A stretch of 58,123 nt of DNA from an uncultured Clostridia bacterium (GTDB taxonomy: Bacteria; Bacillota; Clostridia; Christensenellales; CAG-1252). Shown here piece by piece: positions 2,215 to 58,050 of this stretch. The first letter of the stretch is position 1. Each line of letters begins with the position of its first letter. The DNA lies in NCBI GenBank assembly GCA_945482995.1, contig CALYRM010000004.1, positions 1-58,123 on the forward strand. The letters run 5' to 3'. The notes below the pieces were generated by a model. It did not search any database, was not told where the DNA came from, and saw only the letters and a list, made by a program, of their open reading frames with translations. The translations under genes were made by a program, and so were the position numbers.

Positions 2215-2598
2215 ATTACTTCTCGCGTAATTCGCTAAAAGCCGATGCCGGGGATGAAACATCTTCACTTCGATCGAAATGACTTGTGGGCGACTAAAGG
2301 ATAGATAAAGCGGATGAGATTCTTCGACATTGCTCAGAATGACACATTCGTTGCACTCCGCCAAGGATGTCATTATGGCTCGGAATGACGTTATCTTAAT
2401 GAATGACTTATTTTATTATAGCACAATAAAAACTATTAGTATATATTTTTAATATATTTTATTCGTTAATTTTGGCAAGTTTGACAATAGATTACTATGC
2501 ATGGTTCGCAAATAGTCGGTACTTTTATAAATCTTTTCCGACTACACTCGGAATGATTAACAAGTATTAAATCTTTAAATCTTCGTTATCAGAATGAT
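2215..2598 (+). repeat. Intergenic mosaic repeat locus A (hairpin units ending ..AATGAC/AATGAT)
   Basis: Contains ttcgctaaaagccgatgc...cttcacttcgatcgaaatgac and gagATTCTtcgacattgctcAGAATgac (ending 2343), then cggaatgac and gaatgac. A second block (2503..2598) reads ggttcgcaaatagtcggtac...ccgactacactcggaatgat. A non-repeat spacer lies between the two blocks. Confidence 0.75.
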
Positions 2599-7084: not shown

Positions 7085-7113
7085 AAAACATCCTCCAACT
7101 AAATTTTGTAATA

Positions 7114-7142
7114 AATATAGCACAGTCTGGTATATTTTTCGA
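7114..7142 (-). promoter_or_regulatory. Candidate extended -10 promoter for the GLUG-protein gene
   Basis: The minus strand reads TCGAAA, 17 nt (ending TGc), TATATT, so TGcTATATT is an extended -10. This predicts a leader of about 23 nt containing GGAGGA. Confidence 0.35.
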
Positions 7143-7344
7143 CTTATTTTGTTATACAGACTTCCATATGCTATTAATCTACTCAAATTTTATCATAACT
7201 TAACAAATAAATCAATACTTTTGTTAAATTTTCTTAAAATTTATTTTTCTGGCTTAATTTGTTCTTAATACATTTTATGAATTCTAAATTATTATAATTA
7301 CAAAATTTTTAAATTAAGTGTCTAGAAACTTTATACAATACGCA

Positions 7345-7615
7345 ATTTGAAACGACGCACAAGGATGAGGTCCCTCGACTACGATTAGGATGACAATATG
7401 ATAAAAATGGCTTCCGTATGCTTCGCAAAAAGTCGGTGCTAGTATAGAGATGTCTCGACTACGCTCGACATGACGGAAAAAGGATGATATTCTTCGAACA
7501 AGGCTTAAGAATGAGAATATGCAAAAAAAGGCTTCCGTATGCTTTCCAACTAGTTTGTGCATGTATAGAGATTTCTCCACTCCGTTAGCACTTCGGTCGA
7601 AATGACGAACAAGGA
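7345..7615 (+). repeat. Intergenic mosaic repeat locus B
   Basis: Two long units (ggcttccgtatgcttcgcaaaaagtcggtgc..atagagATGTCtcgactacgctcGACATgac, and the ..ccactccgttagcacttcggtcgaaatgac variant) are interleaved with short units (aaggatgaggtccctcgactacgattaggatgac). Confidence 0.85.
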
Positions 7616-11462: not shown

Positions 11463-14400
11463 TTATAGATTGTAAGTGATCGTGATTGTTGCTGAATCGG
11501 CAGAAACCGAAACAATGGTGATATCAAAGTTGACAATTTTTCCGTCGTTTCTAGTGTAACTCGGGAATACTTCACTAAATACGTCTCCTGTACCCCAAAG
11601 ATCGGATATGGAAGCAACACCTTTTGTGCTTTCAAACTTATTCTCGCCGTCTGCCTCCACGGTTTTGATTAAAGCTATATCTGTAATTGAATTATTGTAG
11701 TTTGTTAGTGAAATGTACCTTTCGTCACTACAAGGTGCGTCGATTTGAGAGGATACATGCGTGATACGAACTCCGTACTTTGCGCCATCGTATAACAATG
11801 AATCTTGCAAGTTAGCTTCAAGCTCGTTTAAGCCTGTAGCTGTGTATAAATCAATCAATAAATACTCCGAAAAATATGAATTGTTAAATGACAACGGTAC
11901 TAAAATGCAATCGCCACTCTTTTCAAACGAGTTGATTGTGATTGTTTTCGTTTCGGTAACAATATTAGCGTCCGTCCAACCAAGCATTATTTTGCTGTAT
12001 GAACAATGGTCGCCTGTGGTGTAATCCATCATATCTGCGCCGCCCATTGTCTCATCAGAGCCTAAACCCTCTTCATAATCATAATAATCGTCTAAGCCCA
12101 ACAAGTGCCCCGTTTCGTGAATATAGGTCATTGCGTTTAGCGTAACTCCGTACTTGGCTTTTTCGTCGTCCATAAAATCGAAACCTGCGAACATATAGTA
12201 ATACGCATATTTTGAGTCGTATTGTTCTTCGCCCATATAAGTTGTGCAATAAGCCCAATAAAATTCACCATTTGTAAAGTCAACGGGGGCTGAATAGATT
12301 ATATAAACTGAATCGATACATCCATCTCCGTTTGTGTCGTATTTTGAATAATCAATCAAGTTATCGTAATAACTCAATGCTTCTTTAAGAATAAGCGAAG
12401 AACCGTCGGCAAATGTTGCTTCATCATAATAATTCTCATAAAATTTTGCATTTTTTGGCGCTTGGAATATTTCTTGAATATCAAACGTAATATTGAGTTT
12501 GCCATAAGACGTTTTTGAATAATATGAAGCAACGCTTTCCCAACCTGTATCTTCTGCCGTTCCATTAAATGTCTTTTGAAGCTTATCAAGTTGCGCAGAA
12601 GTAATGGTGTCACCATTAAATTGAACCGGGATGACTAGAACGTGAAGGTCGTCGGCGATTGACGGCAAACCAATTGCTTCATCTGAAACCAACAACTTAT
12701 CTTGCAAATTGTCTTTATCAAAAGTATCAGGATTATAGTTTTGATTTTCCATTACGTTTTCGGGTTTTGGCTCAATCGGATCATCACCGCCACCAGTGTT
12801 GCCACCGCTTGCGCTTCCTGTCGCTACCGTTATTGATTTGAGGTACATCGATTTTTTTGTTTGCGTAGGCTCTAGAGTAATTTCGATATTACCGGATATC
12901 GGAGTTGCACTAGTAAACGTTACTGTTACAAGCACGGTGTATTCGGTTTTTTCGACAGAAACTTTTGCTTCGCCGTTTGAAGTCAAACTTGTACCACCGA
13001 CTTTGACGCTTACTACCATACCTAAATCTGCATTAGTTTGTACAACTACCGAAATGCCTGTTACGTTATCAACTGAAAGCTTTGACGTCAACACAACAGC
13101 ACCATTTTGTTGCAAGAATTGCAAGCCTCTTGTTTCGTCCAAGCTATTGGCTCCAATGCTTGAGGTGTATTCCAATTCGCCTGAGCCAACGCCTAAGCCT
13201 GCGGATACAAATGTTGTGGTCATTCCTTCAACCGGAGTATCCGAACCGCCACCTAAGTCGGGAAGTTCAAAAGAAACAGTACCGTAATCGCTAAATTCAT
13301 ATACAAATTTTTCACCGGACTCAAGATGTCCTTCGATAGTTCTTATTTTGCCATTTTCAACCGTTACGATAAATGCGCCGTATGATTTATTATTTAGTTC
13401 TCCAATAAAGGCATTACCTACACTCACAGGGTCAACTGCATGATATTTGCCGTCTATTAATTCAAACTCGTAGTAAAGAAGTAAATTCGGATCTGCATAG
13501 TACATATACGAAACACATTCCGAATATTCCATAGTATCGCTATCATATTTTTCATAACCCTCTGTTCCAAAATCAGCTAGGAAGTAGTAATCATCTAGAG
13601 CTTCGTCGTATACCAAATAATCGGTATAGGTCAAGCCGTCCTCTGCTTCGTATGCGTTTTTAATGGTTTGTCCCATATACCAATAAAAATCATCATAGCT
13701 TTCATTTGCCGAAATTACAGTTTTAACGTTTACGGCAAAATTCCAAGAATGATAATCGCTATATGCGTTGATAAGATCAACAAACTCCTGTGGATTCTCT
13801 GCAGGAGTATCGGGGATACCCTCTCCACCACCGTCGACAACAGTCAAACCCGAAACATCGATAGTCTGCTCGGAATAGCCTGAAAAATCAAAAACGGTTT
13901 TAGCCTTATATGCCCCTTCTTCGTCCTCTTCGTCCGATGACAACACTAATTTGGTAACATATCCGCCCTCGGTATAAAGTTCTACACTTGTATATACGCA
14001 ATTTTCATATGCACCGCATAGTGCATTGCCGGTTACTTGCGGATAAACCGCTTCATAATGGTCGTCTACTTTTTCAAACAAGCAGTGTGGCAACTCCCAC
14101 AAGAAGACAGGATACATACTGCTCATATACTCAGAGTAGTATTCGTTATCCGTTCCTATTTTTGTATGGGTCCCATCGCCATTATCTGCATAAAATACAT
14201 AGGCATCAATGCTAGCGTCATAAACCATGTAATCAGTCAATAACATACCCTCACTAAGATATACAGATTTACAGCCGTCGTTTGCATATGCAAATCCACA
14301 AGTTATACTTTGAACATTGTCATAATATACTTCGGCATCCATACCAAAATTCCATGTTGATTCGTCGGAGTATTTATCCAAAATCTCTTTTAGTTCGGCA

Positions 14401-15569
14401 TCATTATTAACATTACCATATGCAATGGTTAAATCTGCCAAGTTAAAATCAACTTTGCCAAACTCGTCAAAAGTAAACGTAGAAACGCATTTATCGACAA
14501 CACCATCGTATTCTTCATCCGAATAGAAAACTATCTTTGTTATTTCGTTGTCGCCGGTGTATACTTCAACCTTGGTATAGACACAACCATCAAGCGAACC
14601 ATAAACGCCATCGCCAACCTTTTGCGGATCAACGGCTACATAGTGATCGCCCTCTTTTGTATATTCGTATGTTACAAGGTCATCGAGGAACAATTCGGGA
14701 TAGTACACTGCGCCATAGTCAGCGCCTGCAATGGTTGCGGTTTGATAAGTGCCGTTAGCAAGGTCAAAATAATAAGTATACTCGTCTTTTTCAGCGTCAT
14801 ACGTAACATAATCTGTATACAAATTACTATCGGTTGCGTCACCTTCATTCATATGAATATAAATCAATGCGTCCTTGTTGTAGCCGAAAGTTTCTTGGTA
14901 TCTATAGTTTTCATCTGCATTATAGATAACGTCCGAATTAATCATAAAATTCCAATTATTGGTATCGGCATACTTTTCAAGAATTTCTTCGAAAGTTAAG
15001 ATTAGAGGTCCAACTCTATCGTTGACCGTAATGCTCGCGGTTGAAGAAACTTCGTCATATGTACAAACTACGTCAAATGTTCCGCTCTTTGTCAAGTCTA
15101 CCTTCGACAAATCAAGCATTTCGTCGGTTACAGTAACTGCGTTACCGTCTTTATCCACAACTTCAAAATATGATTTAAAGTCAACCACATCACCAACCGT
15201 CAAAGTTAAAACGGCGTCTGCCTTTACCGTAACAGTTGCATGTGCTTCCGCGTTAACTACCCTAACTGTGAAGGTCGCAGAAACCTTTTTTTCACCATAC
15301 GAACATTCAATAGTAAAAGTGCCCTCTTTTGTAAGGTCAACATTAGATAAATCAAGCATCCCTTCTGTTACTTCTATAATCTTTCCGTCATTAGTGGTAA
15401 TAGAAAAATACTTTGTGAAATCTACCTCATCCCCAACGTTAAGGACAAAGGGCAATTCGTTATTAAGATCTATTTGTATGTTTGCAAGAACAGTTTCGCA
15501 AGCTACAGCCGTTAAAGCAACTATTATTACAATTAATAATGCTAAAAATATAAAACTATATTTTTTCAT
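11463..15569 (-). CDS. Large secreted M6-type (immune inhibitor A-like) zinc metalloprotease with N-terminal repeat modules
   Basis: 1379-aa ORF. Start trimmed to ATG 15569 (MKKYSFIFLALLIVIIVALTAVAC), with AAGGAG upstream. HExxH is present as YIHETGHLLGLDDYYDY (codons at 12105..12119), preceded by VLVIPVQFNGD, as in M6 peptidases. Confidence 0.8.
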   Translation of the reverse strand: MKKYSFIFLALLIVIIVALTAVACETVLANIQIDLNNELPFVLNVGDEVDFTKYFSITTNDGKIIEVTEGMLDLSNVDLTKEGTFTIECSYGEKKVSATFTVRVVNAEAHATVTVKADAVLTLTVGDVVDFKSYFEVVDKDGNAVTVTDEMLDLSKVDLTKSGTFDVVCTYDEVSSTASITVNDRVGPLILTFEEILEKYADTNNWNFMINSDVIYNADENYRYQETFGYNKDALIYIHMNEGDATDSNLYTDYVTYDAEKDEYTYYFDLANGTYQTATIAGADYGAVYYPELFLDDLVTYEYTKEGDHYVAVDPQKVGDGVYGSLDGCVYTKVEVYTGDNEITKIVFYSDEEYDGVVDKCVSTFTFDEFGKVDFNLADLTIAYGNVNNDAELKEILDKYSDESTWNFGMDAEVYYDNVQSITCGFAYANDGCKSVYLSEGMLLTDYMVYDASIDAYVFYADNGDGTHTKIGTDNEYYSEYMSSMYPVFLWELPHCLFEKVDDHYEAVYPQVTGNALCGAYENCVYTSVELYTEGGYVTKLVLSSDEEDEEGAYKAKTVFDFSGYSEQTIDVSGLTVVDGGGEGIPDTPAENPQEFVDLINAYSDYHSWNFAVNVKTVISANESYDDFYWYMGQTIKNAYEAEDGLTYTDYLVYDEALDDYYFLADFGTEGYEKYDSDTMEYSECVSYMYYADPNLLLYYEFELIDGKYHAVDPVSVGNAFIGELNNKSYGAFIVTVENGKIRTIEGHLESGEKFVYEFSDYGTVSFELPDLGGGSDTPVEGMTTTFVSAGLGVGSGELEYTSSIGANSLDETRGLQFLQQNGAVVLTSKLSVDNVTGISVVVQTNADLGMVVSVKVGGTSLTSNGEAKVSVEKTEYTVLVTVTFTSATPISGNIEITLEPTQTKKSMYLKSITVATGSASGGNTGGGDDPIEPKPENVMENQNYNPDTFDKDNLQDKLLVSDEAIGLPSIADDLHVLVIPVQFNGDTITSAQLDKLQKTFNGTAEDTGWESVASYYSKTSYGKLNITFDIQEIFQAPKNAKFYENYYDEATFADGSSLILKEALSYYDNLIDYSKYDTNGDGCIDSVYIIYSAPVDFTNGEFYWAYCTTYMGEEQYDSKYAYYYMFAGFDFMDDEKAKYGVTLNAMTYIHETGHLLGLDDYYDYEEGLGSDETMGGADMMDYTTGDHCSYSKIMLGWTDANIVTETKTITINSFEKSGDCILVPLSFNNSYFSEYLLIDLYTATGLNELEANLQDSLLYDGAKYGVRITHVSSQIDAPCSDERYISLTNYNNSITDIALIKTVEADGENKFESTKGVASISDLWGTGDVFSEVFPSYTRNDGKIVNFDITIVSVSADSATITITYNL

Positions 15570-15708
15570 ACTATACTCCTTTATGATATTTGCAAAGAGC
15601 AAATATTATTTTATATAACTTAATTATACTTGTTTTAATTCACTAATGTCAATCACGATAGTTGATAAAATAATGTTATTTATGTAATAAAAAGATATTT
15701 ACTTAAAT

Positions 15709-15895
15709 ATGTAATGTACAATGTATAATTAGTTTACGACTGTTCGTATGCTTCGCAAAAAGTCAGTGCTTGGATAGAGATTTCTCGACTACGCTCGAAA
15801 TGACGAACAAGGATGCGATTCCTCGACAACGCTTAAGAATGACAAAGCGGATTAGATTCCTCCACGTTGGTCGGAATGACAAAGTGGATGGCTCG
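15709..15895 (+). repeat. Intergenic mosaic repeat locus C (head heptamers, long unit and two short hairpin units)
   Basis: atgtaatgtacaatgtataat head (15709..15729), then gttcgtatgcttcgcaaaaagtcagtgc..gagATTTCtcgactacgctcGAAATgac, gcgATTCCtcgacaacgcttaaGAATgac and agATTCCtccacgttggtcGGAATgac. Confidence 0.85.
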
Positions 15896-15945
15896 ATATA
15901 AAATTTTGGGTAAGAATTATATTATAAATGAAATAATTAATGATA

Positions 15946-15974
15946 TTGATTTTTGAATGTGTTTGATTTATAAT
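15946..15974 (+). promoter_or_regulatory. Candidate sigma-A promoter for luxS-NUDIX
   Basis: TTGATT (15946..15951), 17 nt, TATAAT (15969..15974). It lies about 33 nt upstream of the ATG, and the AAGGAG SD sits in between. Confidence 0.5.
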
Positions 15975-16006
15975 TAACTATGTTATTTTGATTTTAAGGA
16001 GTAGTT

Positions 16007-16873
16007 ATGGAAAAAATAGACAGCTTTAAAATTAATCATTTGATTTTAAAATCGGGAATATACGTTTCTAGAATGGATAAGTATAACGGGGTGACGGTGA
16101 CCACGTTTGATTTGAGAATAACAGCGCCGAATGCTGAACCGCCTATGGATATCTCCGCAATGCACACTCTCGAGCATTTGGGCGCTACATATTTAAGAAA
16201 CTCGGAAATCAAGGATAGAGTTGTTTATTTTGGACCTATGGGGTGTAGAACAGGCTTTTATCTTGTTTTATTTGGTTCGCTTGTCTCAAGTGACGTTTAT
16301 CCAACCATAATTAGACTTTTAGATTATATTATCAATTTTGAGGGTGATATACCCGGAGCAACGGCAATCGAATGTGGAAATTATTTAGATCAAAATCTTA
16401 CAAATGCCAAATATTATGCTAAAAAATATAAAAACGAACTTAAAAACAAGAGATTTGTTTACCCTACCGATACAGTTAAAGCAGGTTGCGTTTTGTTAAA
16501 CAAAGAAAAGAAAGAGGTTTGTTTGGTTTATAGAGAAAAATATTCCGACTATTCCTTCCCAAAGGGACACCTTGAAGGCAACGAAAGCATTGTAGATTGC
16601 GCTATAAGAGAAACTGCAGAGGAAACCAAGCGAAAAGCAAAAATAGTTTATTCGGTTGCTCCTATTGAAGAAAAATATACTACCCCTAGTAGAGAAAGCT
16701 GTATTTGCATTATATATTTAGCCGTTGACAATGGAGAGAGCGATAACACATCTTCTGACACCCACCCTATAAAATGGGTAGCGGTAGATAAGGTTTTAGA
16801 TACGTTAAGCTATGAGGCAAACAAAGAGACATTTATAAAATTACTTCCCGAAATAGAAAAACTTTTGAATTAA
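16007..16873 (+). CDS. luxS: S-ribosylhomocysteine lyase (LuxS) fused in frame to a C-terminal NUDIX hydrolase domain
   Basis: Residues 1 to ~155 carry LuxS hallmarks (SF..NH, FDLR, metal ligands HTLEH, PMGCRTGFYL, ECGNY). Residues ~160-288 carry a NUDIX box: GHLEGNESIVDCAIRETAEETK. AAGGAG lies upstream of the ATG. Confidence 0.85.
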   Translation: MEKIDSFKINHLILKSGIYVSRMDKYNGVTVTTFDLRITAPNAEPPMDISAMHTLEHLGATYLRNSEIKDRVVYFGPMGCRTGFYLVLFGSLVSSDVYPTIIRLLDYIINFEGDIPGATAIECGNYLDQNLTNAKYYAKKYKNELKNKRFVYPTDTVKAGCVLLNKEKKEVCLVYREKYSDYSFPKGHLEGNESIVDCAIRETAEETKRKAKIVYSVAPIEEKYTTPSRESCICIIYLAVDNGESDNTSSDTHPIKWVAVDKVLDTLSYEANKETFIKLLPEIEKLLN

Positions 16874-16885
16874 CGATTGCACATT

Positions 16886-16926
16886 AAAAATAGTCTATCA
16901 AGTTTTTTGCTTGATAGACTATTTTT
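16886..16926 (+). terminator. Rho-independent terminator after the luxS-NUDIX gene
   Basis: Stem agtctatcaag/cttgatagact (extended by flanking A/T pairs), followed by attttt. It lies 13 nt past the stop. Confidence 0.85.
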
Positions 16927-16929
16927 ACA

Positions 16930-17335
16930 ATATGGATTAGATTCTTCGAACAATACTTAAAAATGACGTTTATGCTAAGGTAGGACACCTTAGTCAATAT
17001 GCAATTGTGGATTAATTGATTTGTATGCTAAATGTCATTTCGACCGAAGTGCGAATGCACGGAGTGGAGAAATCTAATCCGCTTTTAATGTGCAGTGTGT
17101 TTCCAACTGCCCGTTTACAGTATAACTTTTGTTGATTATTTGCTTTTTAATGTGTAATTAATATCCAATTGGCATAACAACTGTTCGTCTGCTTTGCAAA
17201 GAGTCGGTGCTTATAGTGAGATGTCTCGACTTCGCTCGACATGACATTTGGATTTAGATCCTTACGACTACGCTTCGCAACGCTTGAGGATTACATTATT
17301 AGTCGGAATGACATTATTAGTCGGAATGACACTGT
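16930..17335. repeat. Intergenic mosaic repeat locus D (mixed orientation, with an 18-nt tandem duplication)
   Basis: Forward unit at 16930..16967. Reverse-orientation unit gtcatttcgaccgaagtgcgaatgcacggagtggagaaatctaatcc at 17034..17082. Long forward unit ending ..gagATGTCtcgacttcgctcGACATgac. attattagtcggaatgac occurs twice in tandem (17295..17312 and 17313..17330). Confidence 0.85.
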
Positions 17336-17343
17336 CTAATATT

Positions 17344-17377
17344 AAAACGACTGGTTGCTAAAGCAATCAGTCGTTTT
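17344..17377 (-). terminator. Terminator after the 2387-aa lipoprotein gene (end of the giant locus)
   Basis: 15-bp stem aaaacgactggttgc/gcaatcagtcgtttt (one G-T pair) with loop taaa, immediately downstream of the stop at 17385. A U-run follows on the minus strand. Confidence 0.75.
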
Positions 17378-17384
17378 AACTTGT

Positions 17385-20300
17385 TTATGCGAAATAGCCG
17401 TTCGCCTTTCCTGTATAATTCGATTTACCTAATGTTACACCATTCGATTTTGCAGTATAGTTGTATGTGTACTTGGTATGCTTCAATTTTATACTTAAGA
17501 ATTCCTTTTCACTAGTCATTTCATAATGTGAAATGATTGTTCCGCTAACCGCGCTTGCGCCCGATAGGTTGAGATGAGATCCTGCCACCGTGGTGGTAAA
17601 CGTACCGCCTATTACCCCCGAACAATTAAGCGTGCCGTCCACAACAATTGTTACCGGCGAGTTCGGTTGATATACCTGCTTATTCAAGCGAGTATTTGAA
17701 GCAGAGAGGCTACCGCCGTAAGCCTTTGCTCCGTAATTTGTGTAAACGTTTGAATATGTTGCGTCATAACCTATGAGTCCGCCATTCGAGGATATATTAC
17801 ATACCGCGCCACGATTTATTGTCAAACTTGCCCCCGGCAAGAGTTTAAATTTTGAGTCAAGCGTGACAGTACTGCCTTCTCCCATAACTATGTTATAGTA
17901 TCCGGGAATGGGGATTTCTTTACCCTTAGTTTCCATGTCAACGCTTGCGATACTTACAGATATACTAATTGATATATTATTAGTCTTTACCGCGCCATAA
18001 GCGGTGATTGTGACTTTTCCTGTTGCTGGATCTAACATTTTTGTAAAAGCTCCATTTGTGGCATCTGTCGTTTCAAATAATCCACCTTGTCCAAACATTA
18101 GTAGGTCTCCGACAAACTCTTTATCCGAAGCGGTAATTGTGTAGTGAGCATTAAGTTTAGCACCATACGGAACGGTCAATTTTGCTTCGATATTAGCAAT
18201 CAGGAATTGACTAAATGGGAAAAACTCTTTATATACGGTATATGCAATAGTACCGCCGGGCCAATCCTTAATTTGCAAGGATTCGGTTCCCTCTGCGCCC
18301 GAATTTAGATATACCTCGCCACTTCCTGTGATAAAGCCTAAGCAATATAGCTTACCGTAAACATCGACATATCCGGTTGTCTCAATATCCATACAGCCAT
18401 ATGTTCCGGTTGTGTGTCCCGTGTTGGTAACCTGTCTACCGGATACGTTCAAACTGCCGTTTACGGTTAGGGTTGCGCCATTCATAATTTTGAGTGTGGA
18501 ATACGCACTACTTGGCGCACCGCCCGAGGCAACTGTAAGATTGATTGTGGTATCGTGAGTTGAGTCGTAAGGAATTAACAGCGTTACTCCCGATTTAACG
18601 GTTGCATCTCCGTATAGTCTTGTATTGTACTTAACTATTATCGTTCCGCTCGACATACTGCTCAACGCGCTTTCTAACGTCGTCAAGGTTGAACTTGAGC
18701 TCGTAATAACGCTCTTAATACTAACTGTGCAGGTCGATCCTGAACTTGGTAATTGATAATTCTGCGAGCTCATAGTTATCTTGGTTTTGTATACACCACC
18801 GTCCGTGAAGCTATTGCCGATAGAATATGTCAAACTGTAATTTGACGAATCTAATACAGCGCCGTTATATATGATAGCCGGAGTTATCGTCTTAGCATTT
18901 CCGTCATAGTCATAGTTCCAAGAAGTTTGTTCCAAAGATACGGTTGCCTTGGTAAGAACTAGTTGAACGGTCAAGTTAAGTGTATTGTAATTGTCGGGGT
19001 CTGCGTTGTAGGTTGCGTTATAAGCCTTAACGTCGCAAGTCGGAACAATACTTGGGGTATTCCAAGCAAAGCCACTATTTAGCGTATAGCTTGCAAGAGT
19101 CTTTGTCGGGCTATATACGCCTGTAAGATTATTGTGCGTAATACCTGTGTACGTACCCTTTTGCAATGTCAACGTTATAGTTACGGGATAATCGTTGTAA
19201 TTAACCTTATCGACATTGTAGTATGCAGAATAAACGGTCTTATTAACAACGGGTACAACGCTTGCGTCAACCCAATAATAGCCTGCACTTAATGTGTATG
19301 CAGATAATTGTTGTCCGCTATATACACCGCTTAGTGCAGTATGAGCGGCTACATTTGTATAATTTGCTTTTTCCAATGTTATTGTTATATTAAAGATATA
19401 ATCGTTATAGTTATCGGAATCTGCGTTGTATTTTGCACTATATGCGGTAACATCAACGCTCGGAACTTTTGTGGAATCCACCCAAGCATAATTTGCATTT
19501 AACGTATAACTAGCCAAAGCCTTATCGGGATTATATATGCCTGAGAAGCCCTCATGAGTGATATTTTGATAATCTGCCTTTGCAATGTTTAGCGTGATAG
19601 TCAAACTATAATCGTTATAGTTGACTGAATCCGCATTATAAACTGCATCATACTTATTTTGTTTTACTATTGGTTTCGTATCGCCTTTCACCCAAGCGAA
19701 GTTATTATCGAGTGCATAATCATTTAGAGTGCTATCGGGGTTATATGTACCTGATAATTCTCTATGCATTACGTTTTGATAATCTGCCTTTGCAAGAATT
19801 AATCTAATACTCAATGGATAGTCGTTATAGTTATCTCTATCGGTATTGTAGTATGCGGCATATTCGGTTACATTTACTGTCGGCAATGTATCAGGTGTAT
19901 TCCAATAATAATTTTCGTTTAACGAATATGACGATAGTTTCTTATTTGGATCGTACGTGCCTGCTAGTGCGGTGTGATTGGAAACATCGGTATGGTTTGC
20001 CTTTTCGATTGATAACTTAATCGTTAGGCTGTAATCGTTATAGTTTATCGAATCTGCGTTATAAATTGCAGGATATTCGCTCACCTTGACTGTTGGCGTC
20101 GTGTTTGCGTTTTTCCATCTAAACCCTGCACCTAACACATAATCCGACAGAGTTTTATTAGGATCATAGGTGCCTGACAATTCGTTGTGCGTGATATTTT
20201 GATAATCTGCTTTGTTTATTACAAGTTCAACTGTCATTTGACCATTGACAATATAATTGGTATCGTTATTTATTGCGGTAAAGGAATAACGACCTGCATT

Positions 20301-23300
20301 CTTGAATTCATTGTAATCACCGCTTAACGATAAAGCCATATTTACATTTTCGCCGGTGTAACTTGGATAGTAACACTTGACGGTTGAGGATAAATCCGAG
20401 CCGTTATAAGTATACTCTTGATAATCCCAAGTGAGTGAAACTTTCTTTGGATTTACAGTCAATACCGCATCATTGATTGTGATATTATAGTTATCGTTGT
20501 TAGCTCCCAAAATTGTAATTGTATAACTGTTTACGGCGCTACCTACTGTATAATCAGAACTAAATGTGAAATTACCAAAGCTATCGTTTTCAACGAGTCC
20601 TACTTGAGTATAGGTAAAATTAGCGGCGTCACCATATTCGATAGTCTTGTTGTCAACACTTATCACTAAATCTTTTTTTGCGATTTCCGCTGTTTGAGTA
20701 ACATTTTGATACTCGTAATTTTGGTCCACGTAGCTTGCGAACAATGTATATCTACCTGCATTTTTAAATACACTAGCGGTACCTTGGAATGAAACGTCCA
20801 TATTTAGCTTGTTTCCGTCGTAGGTTGTAAACGTTGCGCTAACCTCGCTTGCACGCTCTAAGCCGTTATAGGTATATTCGCCGATAACCCATTCTACTGT
20901 TACGGGGCGCTTGTTTAGAGTGAACAAGCCTGCGTTTACGGTAACTGCATAGTTATTATTTGGAGTGTATTCAATATTCAATGGATATGAGCCTACTGCT
21001 GTACCTTGCGTGTAAGTGAATGCTATGTTTGTATCAATTACATCACCATCAATTACGCCGATTACTTCATAAATAAATTCTACGTTTTCATCGCCGTAGG
21101 TTGCAACAACGTCTTGTACATTTATTTCAACAGCCTTTTTATTGATGGTTAAATTGGTTGTATTGTTCTTTAAAATATAGTTGGTATCGGCAACGGTTGC
21201 AACAAGCGAATATTCACCGCTTTTCTTAAATACTTTTGTTTCTCCCGAGGTAAATTCAATATTTGCCTCTTCTCTTTCTCCATTATAATTTACAAATATT
21301 GCCTTAACCGATTCGGATTGATCGAGTCTATTATAGATATAGCTATCTAGTGTTTCCCATGTCACACTTACTTCACGATGCGTACATGTCAATGTTGCGT
21401 TGGTGTATACAATTTCGTAATCGGAGTTTTGATAGCCGTCTACGGTGATTGGATAATCGTTCACCGGAGAACCCTTTGTGTAGTCGCAGGTATAACTTAA
21501 CGTACCCAAGCTGTCACCATCAAATAACCCCACTACTCTATGTGAAAATTCGGGAACGTTTTCGCCGTAGGTTAGATATAAAGAATCCACTATAACTTCA
21601 ACTCTTGCTTTGAGAATAGTCAAGCTCTTTTGTTTATCTTGAATGTCATAGTTGATTTCATCTACGCTTGAAGCGGTAACGTTATAGGTGCCTACGTGAT
21701 AAAAATCTGTATTATCGCCACACGCAAAGCTTATATCCATATATTTATATTCGCCGTTTGTTTGCATAAACTTGGCGGTAACCGTTTCGTCTTGCGTTGC
21801 ACCATTATAAGTATAGCTATCTTGGTAATCCCAAACTGCAGTAACGGACTTTTTATTTACTCTTAATATTGCGGAATCGTAAATAATGTTATAGTTGGAA
21901 TTGTTTAGATTTTCACCACTAATTATATAATCGCCTGTATTTGCATTCTTTACATAGTCGCAGATATAGTTAAGTGAACCCAAATATGACGGTGTTTCGC
22001 CGTCAACTAAGCCTACGATTTCGTGAGAAAAGCTCGGTATTTCGTCGCCATAGGTAATAACTCTATCTTCAAACACAATATGAACGTCCTTTGGAGCAAT
22101 GGTTATTGTCCTTTCAACGCCTATTAGCTCGTAGTTCTTGTCTTGGCTGTTTGCGGTAATAGTGTAAGTTCCCGCAGTTTTGAAGTCGGAGATTACGCCG
22201 TTTAGCTTGTATGACAAAACCAAGTTCGTATTTCTGCCGTCGTATCTTACGAATTTAGCATAAATGGTATTCGATTGAGCCTCTCCTGTGTAAGTATAGC
22301 TATCGCTATATACCCAATCAACGTTTACACTTTTCTTTTCAACGGAAAGCACCGCATCATTATAGGTAATATCATAGTTAGAGTTTGTCAATCCGGTTCC
22401 TTGCAACGGATATTTGCCTACCTCGCTACCCTTTGCGTAGTCGCAATCAAAGTTCAAAACACCTAAGCTTTCACCTTCGAGCAAACCCTCAATGCTATAC
22501 GTATAATTTGGAATATCGTCTCCATACGTAACTGTCACGTCGTCAATAGTGACGGTTGCGACAAGTTTTTCTATTTCCACTTGCAGAACTGCATTGGTAA
22601 TATTGTAATTTGTATTGCTGTAGCTTGCCAGTACGTTGTATACGCCTGCATCTTTAAAAACAGTACCGTTACCATTGAAAGCAATGCTTGCAACTGCAAG
22701 ATTTCCATTGATATCTGTAAACGTTGCAGAAATACTGTTTCCTTGGTCAAGTCCGTTATATGTGTAGCTTTCTTTAGTATTCCAAGTCAAATTAACTGTT
22801 TTGGGCAATACTTGGAACCATGCGCTTGTACTTGTTTGGAAATCGTAGTTCGGATTTCTCAAACCTGTCATTCTTACTGAGTACCTACCGGAATCACTAC
22901 CCTTTACGTATTCACAATTATATCTTGGCGTGCCTAGACTGTCACCCTCTAGCAACGAGCCTTTGGTTATCTTATAGCCAAATTCGGGAATATCATCACC
23001 ATAATATACGGTGTTATCGCAAACAACCTTAAATGACAATTCCATTTTTTTAACTGTGAGTATTCCAACTTCATAACTCGTTATATCGTAGTTTTTATTT
23101 GTTAAGCCACTCAATGAAATTGAATATTCACCAACAGACGAGCCTTTTGTATAGTTGGTTTCAAAACTGGCAATACCTAATGAATCGTTATTTAAAAGAT
23201 CGCCACATTCATAGCTAAAGTTCGGTATATCGTCGCCATAAACAACGGTTTGATCTGCTGCTCTAACTGTAATTGGTTTTGGTTCGACTGTCAATGTACC

Positions 23301-24548
23301 CTCTTCAAATATCAACTTATACAAATCACTTTCTAATTTTGTGATTAAAATAGCATAAGTTCCTACATCTGAGCCTACCTTATAATTGCAAGAATACTCT
23401 GCTTCGCCAAATACATTACTGTTTCTATTTCTTGTCGAATAGCTAAACGCAGGAAGTGGATCTCCGTATTTAATGGTAATATCATTAGCTTTAACATACA
23501 TAGAAGCCTTGTTGACAATAATGCTTATTGATTTTTCATCCTCTACATAGTCGCTACCGAAGCTTGACCTTATAACAGCTTTTACAGTGTGCTTGCCGAC
23601 AGTAAGACCTTCCAACAAAATTATTTTGTTAGCTCCATCATATTCCGAACCGTCTAGATACCACTTTATCGAATAAAATATATTTTGGAATTCGGTAAAA
23701 TTCACGCTTACGGTTACCGTCAAATCTTCCGCATATTCAAACGTATTGTCGGAGTTTTGTGTTTCAAGAGTTATACCCTTTAAATGAGCAACCTTTAAAT
23801 TTGCAAATATGTTCATATTCTCGGTTGCCGTTGCCTCGCTCATAATTATTTTACTATTATACTCGGAATCAGCGTACCACCCTTCAAGTTCAAGCCCTTC
23901 GGCAGTGAATTTTGATAGCGCTTTCAATGCGTCCGTTTCGCCTACGTTTATTTTATCGCCGATATAAATCTGTTTTTGCGATAATAGTTCGGTGCCATAG
24001 TAAAAGGATACAGTAGTAGCCTTTCTTTCATATTTAGCGGTAATTACGGTTTCTTTCTTTATTTGGTCAAAAGATGAATCCCAACCAATAAAATTATAAC
24101 CGTATCTCGTGGGCTCGGTCGGTGCAATAGCTGCTGTGTTGTATTCTACAAGTTGCTCGTCTTGACCATTAACTTGAAGTACCTTGCCGTCATAGTCGAC
24201 AAATTTAACCTTAAATTCCTTTGCTTTCCATACGGCATATAAAGTAATGGCTTCCCCTTTGTATTCGTTTTGCTCGAATACGCTGTTTTTGTTGCCAAAC
24301 TCGGTTATCCAATATCTAAAGATATATCCCTCTTTTTCGGGAATAAAATTACTTGGAGTTGGATGCCCGTCAACCTCAATTATGGCGTTTCCATCCTTGA
24401 ACACAACGTTTTCATAGGTAATCGTTTTATCATTATCGTCGTCATTTACATTAATGAAGCTACACGCAGTTAGAGCTAGTAGCAGCACTAAAACGATGGT
24501 GATAATCAAAGGAAGTAAAAGCTTCTTGTTGTTAATAGCGTTTTTCAT
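17385..24548 (-). CDS. Giant surface lipoprotein: InlB B-repeat-like units, MBG/YDG-type repeat array, six 70-aa repeats and a C-terminal uncharacterised module
   Basis: Uninterrupted 2405-aa ORF. Start trimmed to ATG 24548 (MKNAINNKKLLLPLIITIVLVLLLALTAC, lipobox LTAC), with AAGGAG upstream. GYIFRYW / GYNFIGW / LEGWY motifs are of the Listeria-Bacteroides repeat type. Many units follow the pattern TV.YGD.IP.F.Y...GL..GDSLG....Y.KGS.VG.Y. Confidence 0.85.
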   Translation of the reverse strand: MKNAINNKKLLLPLIITIVLVLLLALTACSFINVNDDDNDKTITYENVVFKDGNAIIEVDGHPTPSNFIPEKEGYIFRYWITEFGNKNSVFEQNEYKGEAITLYAVWKAKEFKVKFVDYDGKVLQVNGQDEQLVEYNTAAIAPTEPTRYGYNFIGWDSSFDQIKKETVITAKYERKATTVSFYYGTELLSQKQIYIGDKINVGETDALKALSKFTAEGLELEGWYADSEYNSKIIMSEATATENMNIFANLKVAHLKGITLETQNSDNTFEYAEDLTVTVSVNFTEFQNIFYSIKWYLDGSEYDGANKIILLEGLTVGKHTVKAVIRSSFGSDYVEDEKSISIIVNKASMYVKANDITIKYGDPLPAFSYSTRNRNSNVFGEAEYSCNYKVGSDVGTYAILITKLESDLYKLIFEEGTLTVEPKPITVRAADQTVVYGDDIPNFSYECGDLLNNDSLGIASFETNYTKGSSVGEYSISLSGLTNKNYDITSYEVGILTVKKMELSFKVVCDNTVYYGDDIPEFGYKITKGSLLEGDSLGTPRYNCEYVKGSDSGRYSVRMTGLRNPNYDFQTSTSAWFQVLPKTVNLTWNTKESYTYNGLDQGNSISATFTDINGNLAVASIAFNGNGTVFKDAGVYNVLASYSNTNYNITNAVLQVEIEKLVATVTIDDVTVTYGDDIPNYTYSIEGLLEGESLGVLNFDCDYAKGSEVGKYPLQGTGLTNSNYDITYNDAVLSVEKKSVNVDWVYSDSYTYTGEAQSNTIYAKFVRYDGRNTNLVLSYKLNGVISDFKTAGTYTITANSQDKNYELIGVERTITIAPKDVHIVFEDRVITYGDEIPSFSHEIVGLVDGETPSYLGSLNYICDYVKNANTGDYIISGENLNNSNYNIIYDSAILRVNKKSVTAVWDYQDSYTYNGATQDETVTAKFMQTNGEYKYMDISFACGDNTDFYHVGTYNVTASSVDEINYDIQDKQKSLTILKARVEVIVDSLYLTYGENVPEFSHRVVGLFDGDSLGTLSYTCDYTKGSPVNDYPITVDGYQNSDYEIVYTNATLTCTHREVSVTWETLDSYIYNRLDQSESVKAIFVNYNGEREEANIEFTSGETKVFKKSGEYSLVATVADTNYILKNNTTNLTINKKAVEINVQDVVATYGDENVEFIYEVIGVIDGDVIDTNIAFTYTQGTAVGSYPLNIEYTPNNNYAVTVNAGLFTLNKRPVTVEWVIGEYTYNGLERASEVSATFTTYDGNKLNMDVSFQGTASVFKNAGRYTLFASYVDQNYEYQNVTQTAEIAKKDLVISVDNKTIEYGDAANFTYTQVGLVENDSFGNFTFSSDYTVGSAVNSYTITILGANNDNYNITINDAVLTVNPKKVSLTWDYQEYTYNGSDLSSTVKCYYPSYTGENVNMALSLSGDYNEFKNAGRYSFTAINNDTNYIVNGQMTVELVINKADYQNITHNELSGTYDPNKTLSDYVLGAGFRWKNANTTPTVKVSEYPAIYNADSINYNDYSLTIKLSIEKANHTDVSNHTALAGTYDPNKKLSSYSLNENYYWNTPDTLPTVNVTEYAAYYNTDRDNYNDYPLSIRLILAKADYQNVMHRELSGTYNPDSTLNDYALDNNFAWVKGDTKPIVKQNKYDAVYNADSVNYNDYSLTITLNIAKADYQNITHEGFSGIYNPDKALASYTLNANYAWVDSTKVPSVDVTAYSAKYNADSDNYNDYIFNITITLEKANYTNVAAHTALSGVYSGQQLSAYTLSAGYYWVDASVVPVVNKTVYSAYYNVDKVNYNDYPVTITLTLQKGTYTGITHNNLTGVYSPTKTLASYTLNSGFAWNTPSIVPTCDVKAYNATYNADPDNYNTLNLTVQLVLTKATVSLEQTSWNYDYDGNAKTITPAIIYNGAVLDSSNYSLTYSIGNSFTDGGVYKTKITMSSQNYQLPSSGSTCTVSIKSVITSSSSTLTTLESALSSMSSGTIIVKYNTRLYGDATVKSGVTLLIPYDSTHDTTINLTVASGGAPSSAYSTLKIMNGATLTVNGSLNVSGRQVTNTGHTTGTYGCMDIETTGYVDVYGKLYCLGFITGSGEVYLNSGAEGTESLQIKDWPGGTIAYTVYKEFFPFSQFLIANIEAKLTVPYGAKLNAHYTITASDKEFVGDLLMFGQGGLFETTDATNGAFTKMLDPATGKVTITAYGAVKTNNISISISVSIASVDMETKGKEIPIPGYYNIVMGEGSTVTLDSKFKLLPGASLTINRGAVCNISSNGGLIGYDATYSNVYTNYGAKAYGGSLSASNTRLNKQVYQPNSPVTIVVDGTLNCSGVIGGTFTTTVAGSHLNLSGASAVSGTIISHYEMTSEKEFLSIKLKHTKYTYNYTAKSNGVTLGKSNYTGKANGYFA
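18951..20213 (-). repeat. Six tandem ~70-aa (~210-nt) coding repeats inside the 2387-aa lipoprotein gene
   Basis: Protein repeats follow KA(D/N)Y.N(I/V).H..L.G.Y.P...L..Y.L...(F/Y).W......P.V.V..Y.A.YN.D..NYNDY.L.I.L... The nucleotide period of about 210 nt is visible from the recurring aatcgttatagtt and ctgcgttgta strings. Confidence 0.85.
20214..23520 (-). repeat. Alternating MBG-type / YTYNG-type domain array (coding)
   Basis: About 9 alternations of units containing YGD.(I/V)P.F.(Y/H)...GL..G(D/E)SLG and units containing SYTY(N/T)G..Q......A.F. Boundaries are approximate. Confidence 0.7.
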
Positions 24549-24717
24549 ATTTTGCTCCTTATGTGACAGATTGGTTTGGTTGGTTTCAGATATGTAGCTC
24601 ATATCTATTTGTATTGATTAGTCCTTTTTTTGTATGTTTCACAAATGATTTGACTGTTTTGCCGTCGTGAATTGAATTGTGACTTAACAATTGCTATTTA
24701 TGGTATATCATGATTTT

Positions 24718-42579: not shown

Positions 42580-43140
42580 CTATTTGTTATTTAATTTGGC
42601 AAGAATCTGCTCAAGTAATTCAACTGTCTTTTGTTGGTTGAGTCTTGCTGCTTCAATCTTTGCTTCTTCAGCTTTTTTTGCTAATTCTGCTGCTTCTGCT
42701 TCTGCTTGTGCTTGCGCTTCAGCTTCTGCCTTTGCTTTTTCTTCTGCTTCTAGTGCAGCTCTACCTTTTTGGGTCATCTTCTTGAGCTTGTGCTTTAAGC
42801 CCTTGCCACCTTCTCTTGCTGTGTTGATAGCCTTAACGATTACAAACAAAACAAGTGCGGTTAGTAGAAAAGTGATGATTGCAGAGATAACTGCGCCCCA
42901 ATCCAATATCAATGGTTGAACAATTACGGCACCGGTTTCATCAGTAACTGCCTTTCTTAAAACTGTTTGTAATCCGGTTGTGCCAGATATTGGAATCCAG
43001 TTGATAAGTGGCTTCAAAATGTTGTTTACTAACGCTGTAACGATTGCGGTAAATGCAGAACCGATAATCATACCAACGGCAAGATCTACTGCATTGCCCC
43101 TAGAGATAAACTTTTTAAACTCATTAAACAATTTTTTCAT
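42580..43140 (-). CDS. mscL: Large-conductance mechanosensitive channel MscL with an extended C-terminal tail
   Basis: N-terminus FKKFISRGNAVDLAVGMIIGSAFTAIVTALVNNILKPLI is canonical MscL. AGGAGA lies upstream. The C-terminal ~75 aa are low-complexity (AEAEAQAQAEAEAAELAKKAEEAK). Confidence 0.9.
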   Translation of the reverse strand: MKKLFNEFKKFISRGNAVDLAVGMIIGSAFTAIVTALVNNILKPLINWIPISGTTGLQTVLRKAVTDETGAVIVQPLILDWGAVISAIITFLLTALVLFVIVKAINTAREGGKGLKHKLKKMTQKGRAALEAEEKAKAEAEAQAQAEAEAAELAKKAEEAKIEAARLNQQKTVELLEQILAKLNNK

Positions 43141-44023: not shown

Positions 44024-44390
44024 AACGTGCAACGTGCCACCCGTGACTGTGCAATTGGTACTGTCGCTTAATCCCTATTCTCAAAAACATATTGCGTACC
44101 TCGTTTTAGAGATTTCTCGACTTCGCTCGAAATGACAAATAAGGATAAGATCCCTCGAACAACGCTTTCAGGATGACAATTAATATGGTCGTTATGGCGA
44201 AAGGGGATGAGAATCTTCGACTTCGTTGCGCTACGCTTGAGAATGACAATTTTATAACATTCGGGCGGATTGGGAATAGCAAAAGCGGATTTAGATCCTC
44301 ACGACTTCGCTCAGGATGACGATGGGTGCGGATTTAGATTCTCACGACTTCGTTGCGCTACGCTTGAGAATGACGATGGGGTTGTGTCGA
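44024..44390 (+). repeat. Intergenic mosaic repeat locus E
   Basis: Head aacgtgcaacgtgcca (44024..44039), then gagATTTCtcgacttcgctcGAAATgac and agATCCctcgaacaacgctttcaGGATgac. Two long-loop units (..cttcgacttcgttgcgctacgcttgagaatgac) follow, plus agATCCTcacgacttcgctcAGGATgac (stem arms 44295..44299 and 44313..44317). Confidence 0.85.
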
Positions 44391-46889: not shown

Positions 46890-46918
46890 AAAAAGCCAAC
46901 TTATGGGTTGGCTTTTTT
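46890..46918 (+). terminator. Rho-independent terminator about 170 nt downstream of the GDPD gene
   Basis: Stem gccaac/gttggc extended by A/T pairs (aaaaagccaac ttatgg gttggctttttt), with a T6 tail. Confidence 0.7.
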
Positions 46919-46920
46919 GA

Positions 46921-47405
46921 TAATAAGGATGAGGTCCTCGAACAACGCTTAAGAATGACAATATGCTAAAAATGGCTTCCGTATGCTTCGCAAAAAGTCG
47001 GTGCATGTATAGAGATTTCTCCACTCCGTTAGCACTTCGCTCGAAATGACGAACAAGGATGAGGTCCCTCGAACAACGCTTTCAGGATGACGGTGAAGAA
47101 TAGATTCCTCCACGTTGGTCGGAATAACAGTACACAATAGATTCCTCCACTGCGGTCGGAATGACGATTTAGAAGGATTAGATTCCTCCACTGCGGTCGG
47201 AATGACATTTAAATGGTCGGAATGACATTTAAATGGTCGGAATGACAGTATGAACGCACAGAATGACAGTATGAACGCACAGAATGACAAACATGCACAA
47301 TCAAAGTATGTAAAATTGCACTTAAAAATAAAAATGTCGCCTACAAATAAGCGACATTTTTTGAAACATGGATGACATCCTTCTAACTTCGTTTACAGGA
47401 TGACA
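46921..47405 (+). repeat. Intergenic mosaic repeat locus F (largest array, with tandem micro-duplications)
   Basis: About a dozen units. The long unit is nearly identical to the one in locus B. Three ..agattcctccac[gt]..ggtcggaat[ga]ac units are present. atttaaatggtcggaatgac occurs twice (47207..47246) and agtatgaacgcacagaatgac occurs twice (47247..47288). One more unit lies beyond the terminator hairpin (47372..47403). Confidence 0.9.
47331..47362 (-). terminator. Terminator after mgtC (bidirectional shape)
   Basis: 10-bp stem aaaatgtcgc/gcgacatttt with a 10-nt loop and A/T runs on both sides. It lies 63 nt downstream of the mgtC stop on the minus strand. Confidence 0.75.
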
Positions 47406-47424
47406 CTTCGTTTCGTGAGAATTA

Positions 47425-54333: not shown

Positions 54334-54622
54334 AATGTACAATGTACAATGTGCAATTTTGGATTGCTTGATTATATGGTATAGTTATTTTCAATCAATC
54401 CGTTTATTGTATTAACTTTTGTCAATTATTAGCCTTTTTAATGTGCAATTCTTTATTTGTTTTATCACTGGTCATATACTTCGCAATAAATCGCGGTGCT
54501 TGTGTAGATATTTCTCAAACAAGACATGACGACTAATAAGAATGAGATTTTTCGACTTCGTTGCAATCCTTCTAAAAATGACGTCATGGTGCAAGATGAT
54601 AGATTAGTTCCTCAGAATGACA
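54334..54622 (+). repeat. Intergenic mosaic repeat locus G
   Basis: Head ATGTACA ATGTACA ATGTGCA (within 54334..54357), a second aatgtgcaat at about 54440, then cttcgcaataaatcgcggtgc..agatatttctcaaacaagacatgac and two degenerate short units ending aaaatgac and cagaatgac. Confidence 0.75.
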
Positions 54623-56094: not shown

Positions 56095-56245
56095 CAAAGA
56101 TCCATTATGGTTCAGAATGGCTGTTCGTGTGCTTCGCTCGAGTCTGTGCTTGCATTGAGACGTCTCGACTTCGCTCGACAATTAGGATGTTGATAGCTTC
56201 TTCTATGTTGCTCATGATGACTTTAATTACATTAAAAATGACGCA
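56095..56245 (+). repeat. Intergenic mosaic repeat locus H (degenerate)
   Basis: ggctgttcgtgtgcttcgctcgagtctgtgc..gagacgtctcgacttcgctcgaca.. followed by ..ctcatgatgac and ..aaaaatgac. It diverges from the consensus. Confidence 0.6.
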
Positions 56246-57978: not shown

Positions 57979-57989
57979 TCCAGTCTTAA

Positions 57990-58030
57990 TCCCGCCGCGG
58001 GAGCGTCATCCTGAGCTTGTCGAAGGATTT
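57990..58030 (-). repeat. Single reverse-orientation hairpin unit between the pckA stop and its terminator
   Basis: The plus strand reads gtcATCCTgagcttgtcgaAGGATtt, the reverse complement of the ..ATCCT..AGGATgac unit type. Confidence 0.7.
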
Positions 58031-58050
58031 AATGCATTTTATTAATAACA

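Follow-up and report, generated by a model that had tools for sequence, protein, structure and literature searches.

The Neisseria NTS repeat, CGTCATTCCCGCGMAVGCGGGAATCYRG, is a subset of dRS3 and, together with Ssn-related motifs (SRM), flanks ssnA, the gene of a 94-aa single-domain GIY-YIG protein (Chenal et al. 2025, PMC11893778). SsnA binds the NTS solely as single-stranded DNA (ssDNA), on one strand, cuts it a few nucleotides (nt) upstream and does not act on RNA; cleavage needs the three bases 5′ of the palindrome, and binding is most dependent on the C just 3′ of it (PMC11893778). In N. meningitidis SsnA restricts the recombination of incoming NTS-bearing ssDNA, and 19% of SRM-rich genomes have no SsnA homologue (PMC11893778). 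Repetitive extragenic palindromes (REPs) of the CGTC-tagged superfamily, which includes Neisseria dRS3 as family CGTC-1, carry a CGTC tag that is often TGTC, have stems whose first bases are A and then T, end in a short tail and lack a tyrosine transposase (Di Nocera et al. 2013, PMC3733652); CGTC-tagged REPs are equivalent to the Ssn-related motifs. Here we analyse a family of intergenic hairpin repeats in 58,123 nt of DNA (the window) from an uncultured Clostridia bacterium (contig CALYRM010000004.1), which most likely represents a new sequence type within this class of CGTC/TGTC-tagged REPs or SRM. An unexplained repeat family of an uncultured gut Clostridia bacterium would thereby join a class of repeats for which the partner enzyme became known as late as 2025.

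A tagged hairpin with a covarying stem

Nine intergenic regions of the window share the repeat family, which was present at all nine loci proposed in an earlier note on this DNA. Cut after each ATGAC on the plus strand, they resolve into head-to-tail units of 20-90 nt, and intergenic RRATGAC occurs 34 times on the plus strand and 5 times on the minus strand. On the minus strand a full unit reads 5′-(T/C)GTC, ATxTC, GAGCGNAGTCGA, GAx′AT, C(TC)-3′, and thus comprises an unpaired tag at the 5′ end, a stem of 5 bp that covaries, the 12-nt core GAGCGNAGTCGA and, 3′ of the stem, a C; core and C are conserved. The core has the potential to fold into tandem G.A/A.G pairs, a G-C pair and next a C-G pair that closes a G-N-A triloop, one T being bulged; in the GACC...GTGG core subtype the inner G-C pair is swapped to C-G. 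Within the GNA loop the base in the middle varies freely (A 61, T 27, G 26 and C 18 in 132 copies from other genomes), its neighbours being fixed.

A 21-nt pattern taken from the window, with the variable stem base x and its partner x′ left unconstrained, was scanned against one genome per prokaryotic species and gave at least 119 stretches in at least 10 phyla. The related loci that we gathered amount to 917 kb (~0.9 Mb) with ~250 hairpin copies, and a core-only search, in which the tag and the whole stem were unconstrained, returned 229 matches. Sixty diverse copies, preselected for at least 4/5 paired stem positions, form alignment A1, and hairpin copies from other phyla served to train a covariance model, R1. 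Within the window R1 had 18 matches with E < 0.1 (best 7e-11), every one of them intergenic and distributed over nine loci, 16 on the minus and two on the plus strand. The GTC tag stands 5′ of the stem in 210 of the 229 core-only matches and in 7 of 9 in the window (the remaining two have GTT and TAA), and the 3′ flank starts with C in at least 140 of the 229 and in all nine core matches of the window, the corresponding column being at least 70% conserved in A1. The consensus of tag and stem start in A1 is TGTCAT; the first stem pair is A-U in 43 of the 60 copies and the second is most often U-A.

The stem covaries strongly. Pairing extends to 96.7% of cells in the 18 copies of the window, where 4 of 7 pairs are changed on both sides; none of 500 shuffles matched this, and slid registers gave 25-56% pairing. 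In the 60 copies of A1, the corresponding values are 95.7% and 5 of 7 pairs, the inner G-C/C-G pair included, again with 0/500 shuffles and with 28-50% in slid registers. The bases x and x′ form a Watson-Crick pair in 127 of the 132 copies listed from other genomes (T-A 57, G-C 43, C-G 22, A-T 5). Because A1 was preselected for pairing, the unbiased figure is that of the core-only search, in which 146 of 229 matches are paired at all five stem positions; 31 stem types occur among the core-only matches that the 21-nt pattern could not have selected. The arm pairs from which the earlier note had argued that the hairpin itself is selected (ATGTC/GACAT, ATTTC/GAAAT, ATTCC/GGAAT, ATCCT/AGGAT and ATTCT/AGAAT) are all in place, and that argument is borne out by the covariation within the window and across phyla. 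The note had also asked whether the arms might be a few clonal subfamilies. In the window, stem type does track core subtype, and about five subfamilies could account for most of the covariation there; the stem changes are independent nonetheless, because the cross-phylum copies show them. The long units, which carry either ATTTC or ATGTC, are a partial exception to this tracking and suggest a measure of independence within the window too. Among the matches listed, the hairpin occurs in Bacteroidota, Verrucomicrobiota, Ignavibacteria, Rhodothermales, Clostridia including Christensenellales and Oscillospiraceae, Negativicutes (Dialister), Planctomycetota, Chloroflexota, Acidobacteriota, Patescibacteria and Spirochaetes.

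Several variants of the unit were found. The long unit of ~70 nt, described in the earlier note as ending in a hairpin, does so in six good and two degenerate window copies, and consists of a ~45-nt extension plus the hairpin. It appears to be specific to this lineage. A metagenome scan with GCTTYGCAAARAGTCRGTGC gave 15 matches, all of them chance matches inside genes, and blastn with the 5′ extension matched solely contigs of the same strain. No supported structure was found for the extension, which may perhaps derive from a core copy that was inverted and has since decayed. Three window hairpins (47008-47054, 7564-7610 and 17034-17080) are loop-expanded, with a second GCGAAG-like motif nested in the core; the arrangement resembles one mini-hairpin inserted in another and recurs in several phyla (L005, L013, L026, L108, L116, L121). 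Tandem half-units, 100% identical, lie at 47195-47289 and 17293-17331, those of the former array being composed of a spacer and the tag-proximal arm (GTCATTCCGACC on the minus strand), and may record repeated nicking and repair beside the tag. A complete hairpin followed by a perfect tandem of ~10-nt spacer, tag-proximal arm and ATGAC is frequent, both in the window and in unrelated phyla (L005, L027, L079, L090, L094).

A neighbouring GIY-YIG gene and kinship with described repeats

All open reading frames (ORFs) within 800 nt of the hairpins were clustered over the 119 loci listed. The sole ORF family shared across phyla was a stand-alone GIY-YIG protein of ~100 aa (PF01541), whose gene is present in 7 of these loci, always abutting hairpins, in Ignavibacterium, four Flavobacteriia, Dehalococcoidia and Spirochaetes. 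Reciprocally, four of four Flavobacterium homologues picked by protein alone are embedded in dense arrays to either side, the 36 kb around the four genes containing 61 R1 matches. The hairpin-flanked proteins are homologous over their full length to SsnA of N. gonorrhoeae, with 43% (E 9e-23) and 41% (E 1e-14) identity and an hhalign probability of 99.6%; the gonococcal orthologue has 94 aa, residues Y6, Y17 and E64, and nine NTS around its gene. The earlier note had suggested looking in the genome for IS200/IS605-like genes of a REP-associated tyrosine transposase (RAYT), which would imply such a partner; the recurring neighbour is an SsnA-like GIY-YIG nuclease instead. The four ssn-like genes of Flavobacterium with their arrays (L122-L125, ~3600-5000) lie in polysaccharide-biosynthesis loci, between NeuB or MBOAT and glycosyltransferase genes. 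The gonococcal orthologue was taken from one of the complete N. gonorrhoeae chromosomes of 2.17 Mb that are filed as plasmids in PLSDB (L146 = NZ_CP119140.1), and the ssnA region of that record is without annotation in the gene table distributed by PLSDB.

The window repeats share with the NTS and other SRM the 5′ (C/T)GTCAT tag, an outer stem that is often ATTCC/GGAAT, the C directly 3′ of the palindrome, a loop of the G-N-A type and an inverted-repeat hairpin in the 20-50 nt class; in both, nearly all copies are intergenic and clustered as mosaic arrays and, at the level of the family, a gene for a ~100-aa single-domain GIY-YIG homologue of SsnA has the repeats at its flanks. They differ in the inner part, which is GA-GC-GNA-G(T)C-GA here and a continuous CGC/GCG stem in the NTS, so that the window type has five continuous, A/T-rich base pairs only. 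Further differences are the host, a Gram-positive spore former whereas described hosts are mostly Pseudomonadota, the head-to-tail arrays, tandem half-units and lineage-specific long unit, and the lack of an ssn gene in view. With families CGTC-1 to -4 they have in common the unpaired CGTC tag that is often TGTC, the stem starting with A then T, the short unpaired 3′ tail beginning with C, the lack of a linked tyrosine transposase and the occurrence in Bacteroidetes, Spirochaetes and other phyla. Described CGTC stems, however, have 8-9 bp and loops of 4-5 nt, compared with a 5-bp stem and a 12-nt conserved core here, and Firmicutes are absent from the phyla listed (PMC3733652).

An NTS-type copy and a core-type copy were found in one Planctomycetota contig (L072), and the two types therefore form a continuum. 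NTS-type SRMs share contigs with GAGCG-core hairpins in L072, L038, L052, L099 and L100; TGTCATTCCCGCGAAAGCGGGAATCCAG is an NTS-type copy that matches the Neisseria consensus save for T instead of C at the first tag base, and intermediate forms exist, such as GTCATCCCCAGCGAAGCCGAGGGATC. A search of published full text with hairpin sequence strings returned unrelated primers only. What is new here is a core type outside the published SRM string, an apparently lineage-specific long unit and whole-unit array differences between 98%-identical strains.

Array differences between strains and rival explanations

The DNA of this species examined amounts to ~80 kb, made up of the window and another ~20 kb of flanking sequence contributed by related strains. 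Four contigs recovered from other samples match 10.9 kb of the window at 97.6-98% identity. Contig JAIFIN010000626.1 of NCBI assembly GCA_019973075.1, which is of the same species, is 98% identical to the window. In the spacer between the GDPD and MgtC genes (Array 6 in Table 1), the window has three ATTCC units and the other strains have one, two or four; L142 and L145 have, in addition, two units there that belong to other subfamilies (X and B′) and in L142 are interleaved in the array, and the copy number of the 20-nt half-unit also varies. Unit X is bounded by an 8-nt direct repeat, ATGACGGT, which fits either insertion beside the tag or deletion between repeats. At 57980-58049, where the window has 70 nt that include the plus-strand hairpin 58001-58035, three other strains have 17 nt instead. 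The repeat family is thus turning over within the species. Nor is it confined to the window, as a further array lies past the window's end in L143. Contigs L001, L002 and L143 start or end within repeat arrays, which hence fragment short-read metagenome assemblies of the species. L142 additionally contains, at 12528-21608 downstream of the gene for phosphoenolpyruvate carboxykinase (PEPCK), an integrated element with a large serine recombinase, helix-turn-helix proteins, a PD-(D/E)XK protein, an ssDNA-binding protein and a family A DNA polymerase; L143 and L144 have different genes there. Whole-unit differences in 98%-identical strains offer a natural system for studying how CGTC/SRM repeats multiply.

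We consider it likely that the units are DNA-level CGTC/TGTC-tagged REP/SRM hairpins, the folded GTC strand of which is bound and nicked by a GIY-YIG nuclease of the SsnA family. The functional strand would be the one reading TGTC-ATxTC-GAGCGNAGTCGA-GAx′AT-C, which is the minus strand of the window for 16 of the 18 copies, and it would fold whenever replication, repair or DNA uptake exposes it in single-stranded form. A small single-domain nuclease would bind the folded hairpin and, if it behaves as SsnA does in Neisseria, recognise the GTC tag on the 5′ side and the C on the 3′ side and nick the ssDNA a few nt 5′ of the tag. On this proposal, the stem would covary because pairing is the sole requirement placed on it, and the tag, core and 3′ C would be conserved because the protein reads them. 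Arrays would gain and lose whole units at or beside the ATGAC boundary, by nuclease-linked copying, recombination between units or both. We infer that a cognate Ssn is encoded in this genome and cuts this strand, and the benefit to the cell may be, as in Neisseria, the restriction of recombination of incoming ssDNA. Each Ssn-hairpin pair is a candidate site-specific ssDNA nuclease with its target for ssDNA tools, and this branch would contribute an A/T-rich target with a structured core.

A number of results weigh against the assignment to an SsnA-type system. Predicted nearest-neighbour energies of the DNA hairpins are only -0.7 to -4.1 kcal/mol, not better than those of shuffles, and the evidence for pairing is therefore evolutionary rather than thermodynamic. 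The solved structures closest to the hairpin-associated GIY-YIG protein are the UPF0213 proteins 1zg2 and 1ywl; a structure of SsnA was not found in the PDB, UPF0213 proteins only. Described CGTC-tagged REPs are mostly head-to-head dimers, whereas the window arrays run head to tail. On true Neisseria NTS, R1 scores 9-12 bits and aligns the tag, outer stem and tail only. The published SRM string, HGTCWYN(0-2)YYVSBRHN(0-5)WNVSBRGN(0-2)RNCYNB, has no match in the window; this string is a search tool derived from 29 genomes and not a functional definition, and in the 917 kb of related loci it has 13 matches compared with 254 hairpins with the GAGCGNAGTCGA core, so that the published definition misses a large and phylogenetically very broad branch of the class. 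A GIY-YIG gene, finally, was found neither in the window and the ~20 kb of related-strain flank nor within 8 kb of hairpins in the fetched loci of Clostridia, Christensenellales, Oscillospiraceae and Dialister.

Since the ~80 kb from this species yielded no ssn gene, we keep as a live rival, albeit an improbable one in our judgement, the view that the repeats are orphans or relics of an Ssn-hairpin system that was once held or received, with the nuclease lost and the arrays changing by slippage and unequal recombination only, without function. The absence of an ssn gene from every Firmicute locus fetched points the same way, as do the many decayed units (R1 E > 0.01, lost tags, half-units) and the 19% of SRM-rich genomes without an SsnA homologue mentioned above, and unequal recombination within a periodic array would be expected to leave strains that differ by whole units, as they do. 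Yet several intact copies score as high as any copy from another phylum (E 7e-11 to 7e-9), simple slippage does not produce the interleaved X and B′ units of L142, the hairpin that is present or absent at 57980-58049 is solitary and outside any array, and the portion examined is ~3% of a typical genome.

The earlier note's comparison with REP/BIME elements holds broadly, in that the units display the tag typical of the CGTC/TGTC superfamily together with its short tail and a stem opening in AT; it fails for RAYT as the partner. Like GTAG REPs, BIMEs and REPINs, the units are short tagged hairpins in mosaic arrays with a covarying stem and a conserved tag, and on our reading the kinship extends to recognition as ssDNA by a small nuclease encoded between repeat copies, a REPtron-like layout. 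Head-to-head, REPIN-like inverted pairs are present in Verrucomicrobiota loci, and each unit ends in the same pentanucleotide after which the next begins, as with IS200/IS605 targets. A classical REP/BIME family mobilised by a RAYT (Y1 HUH) encoded elsewhere in the genome is nevertheless very improbable: the tag is (T/C)GTC and not GT[AG]G, a GIY-YIG protein differs from HUH/Y1 enzymes in fold and chemistry, and a crude motif scan detected no HUH...Y (Y1-like) ORF in the window, in keeping with the earlier note, or in the 0.9 Mb around the ~250 copies. We rejected a RAYT link on these grounds and because CGTC elements do not flank tyrosine transposases (PMC3733652); the REPs that Quentin et al. 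2018 tabulate for RAYT subclass 2.6 and class 3 likewise differ in sequence from these hairpins. Orientation along the replication strand was also discarded as an explanation, as the GC skew of the window is negative with 16 of 18 copies on the minus strand, yet 111 single-orientation loci are divided into 56 with negative and 55 with positive skew; at the level of arrays, the strand bias of the window is 7 vs 1 and not significant.

The earlier note had left open whether selection acts on DNA or RNA, and the results favour DNA. Covariation of the stem is equally compatible with RNA pairing, many copies occupy 5′ or 3′ untranslated positions, and GTAG REPs are known to influence mRNA stability, all of which would suit cis elements acting as mRNA stabilisers, attenuators, processing sites or small RNAs. 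Orientation is, however, unrelated to the flanking genes: at the other loci, co-oriented and anti-oriented cases number 34 and 37, and divergent and convergent ones 18 and 19, and in the window arrays lie between divergent, convergent and tandem genes in nearly always one orientation. Array 6 (46921-47290) is situated between the terminators of the convergent GDPD (~46891-46920) and MgtC (47330-47361) genes and is therefore outside both transcription units, which fits a DNA-level element. No Rfam family was matched at gathering thresholds, with chance-level matches only in 46900-47420, the best of them on a terminator; no tRNA or tmRNA was found by search, folding is weak, and SsnA does not bind RNA (PMC11893778). 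Roles as attenuator or stabiliser are thus unlikely, and we give an RNA-level account of the whole family very little credence.

A more far-reaching form of the SsnA-type reading is tentative and, on balance, doubtful. It holds that the hairpins, which reach across at least 10 phyla, make up an ancient SRM class in its own right, with a separate Ssn clade and recognition logic, and with nuclease-driven insertion that would still be active here. The core, closed by tandem G.A pairs and the GNA triloop, would then be read by the protein, and each array would lengthen one unit at a time, through insertions that depend on the nuclease and fall at a fixed distance from the tag. If true, this would amount to a GIY-YIG-driven ssDNA mobile element, parallel to RAYT/REPIN and active in a gut Clostridia species.

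Coordinates and neighbouring features

The window has a G+C content of 38%, is ~91% coding and leaves ~5.4 kb of intergenic DNA, where the arrays of Table 1 are located; its gene products include GerA, LuxS and ATP-dependent PEPCK, and its host is a spore-forming uncultured gut bacterium. The closest named relatives of this PEPCK come from metagenome-assembled genomes labelled 'Clostridia/Clostridiales bacterium'.

Table 1. Repeat arrays and associated features, in window coordinates
Feature	Position	Strand	Content
Array 1	2220..2598	-	degenerate long unit 2496-2557; full hairpin 2312-2347 (ATTCT/AGAAT), R1 E 5e-6
Array 1, rest	2220..2598	-	several decayed units with ATGAC or ATGAT end
Array 2	7345..7610	-	hairpins 7363-7398, 7443-7478 (ATGTC), 7564-7610 (loop-expanded)
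Array 2, long units	7403-7474, 7516-7606	-	
Array 3	15735..15884	-	long unit 15735-15804 with hairpin 15773-15808 (ATTTC)
Array 3, rest		-	weak unit 15811-15847; hairpin 15849-15884 (ATTCC, GACC..GTGG core)
Array 4	16929..17331	-	unit 16929-16967; long unit 17179-17245 with hairpin 17214-17249
Array 4, inverted hairpin	17034-17080	GTC on +	loop-expanded
Array 4, tandem half-units	17293-17331	-	18 nt x 2.2, 100% identical
Array 5	44090..44374	-	44105-44140, best-scoring hairpin of the window
Array 5, other units		-	44143-44181, 44205-44251 (weak), 44288-44324 (ATCCT)
Array 6, main array	46921..47290	-	unit, long unit 46960-47050 (hairpin 47008-47054), unit, three ATTCC hairpins
Array 6, ATTCC hairpins	47097-47132, 47134-47169, 47175-47210	-	
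Array 6, tandem half-units	47195..47289	-	20 nt x 2.7 + 21 nt x 2.4, 100% identical
Intrinsic terminator, MgtC-family gene	47330..47361	-	bounds Array 6; outside the repeat family
Two short decayed units	47370..47408	-	GGATGAC end; R1 E 0.8
Array 7	54468..54621	-	degenerate long unit 54468-54530, loop-expanded unit 54540-54586, decayed unit
Array 8	56110..56242	-	long unit; hairpin 56154-56181 without ATGAC tag; decayed units
Single hairpin, opposite orientation	58001..58035	+	GTCATCCTGAGCTTGTCGAAGGAT; within 70-nt segment 57980-58049

The earlier note had pointed to a recurring spurious peptide across the units, and VEKSLYMH.L..KHTEA is indeed a true translation of the minus strand. Contamination of protein databases, which it feared, was not seen: four array-spanning ORFs were absent from a collection of 15 billion proteins, and gene callers left the corresponding region of L001 empty. 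Long PEPCK entries (580-733 aa; P0121-P0125, P0133, P0137) were considered as read-through of repeats and rejected, their extra length consisting of internal duplications of 45-200 residues, which are probably assembly artefacts unrelated to the repeats.

Arrays bracket very large surface-type proteins in the window (2645-7186, 11463-15602 and 17385-24602, the last with 19143-20213). A 1513-aa ORF with a CBM_X2 domain has an array on each side, and a 2405-aa ORF contains eight MBG_2 domains, Listeria-Bacteroides repeats and 210-nt periodic DNA repeats. This placement recalls the clustering of NTS at surface-protein genes of Neisseria, although housekeeping genes are flanked by arrays too. A CTGCTT tandem repeat with 6-nt and 24-nt periods lies at 42690-42751, within a 186-aa ORF (42580-43140).

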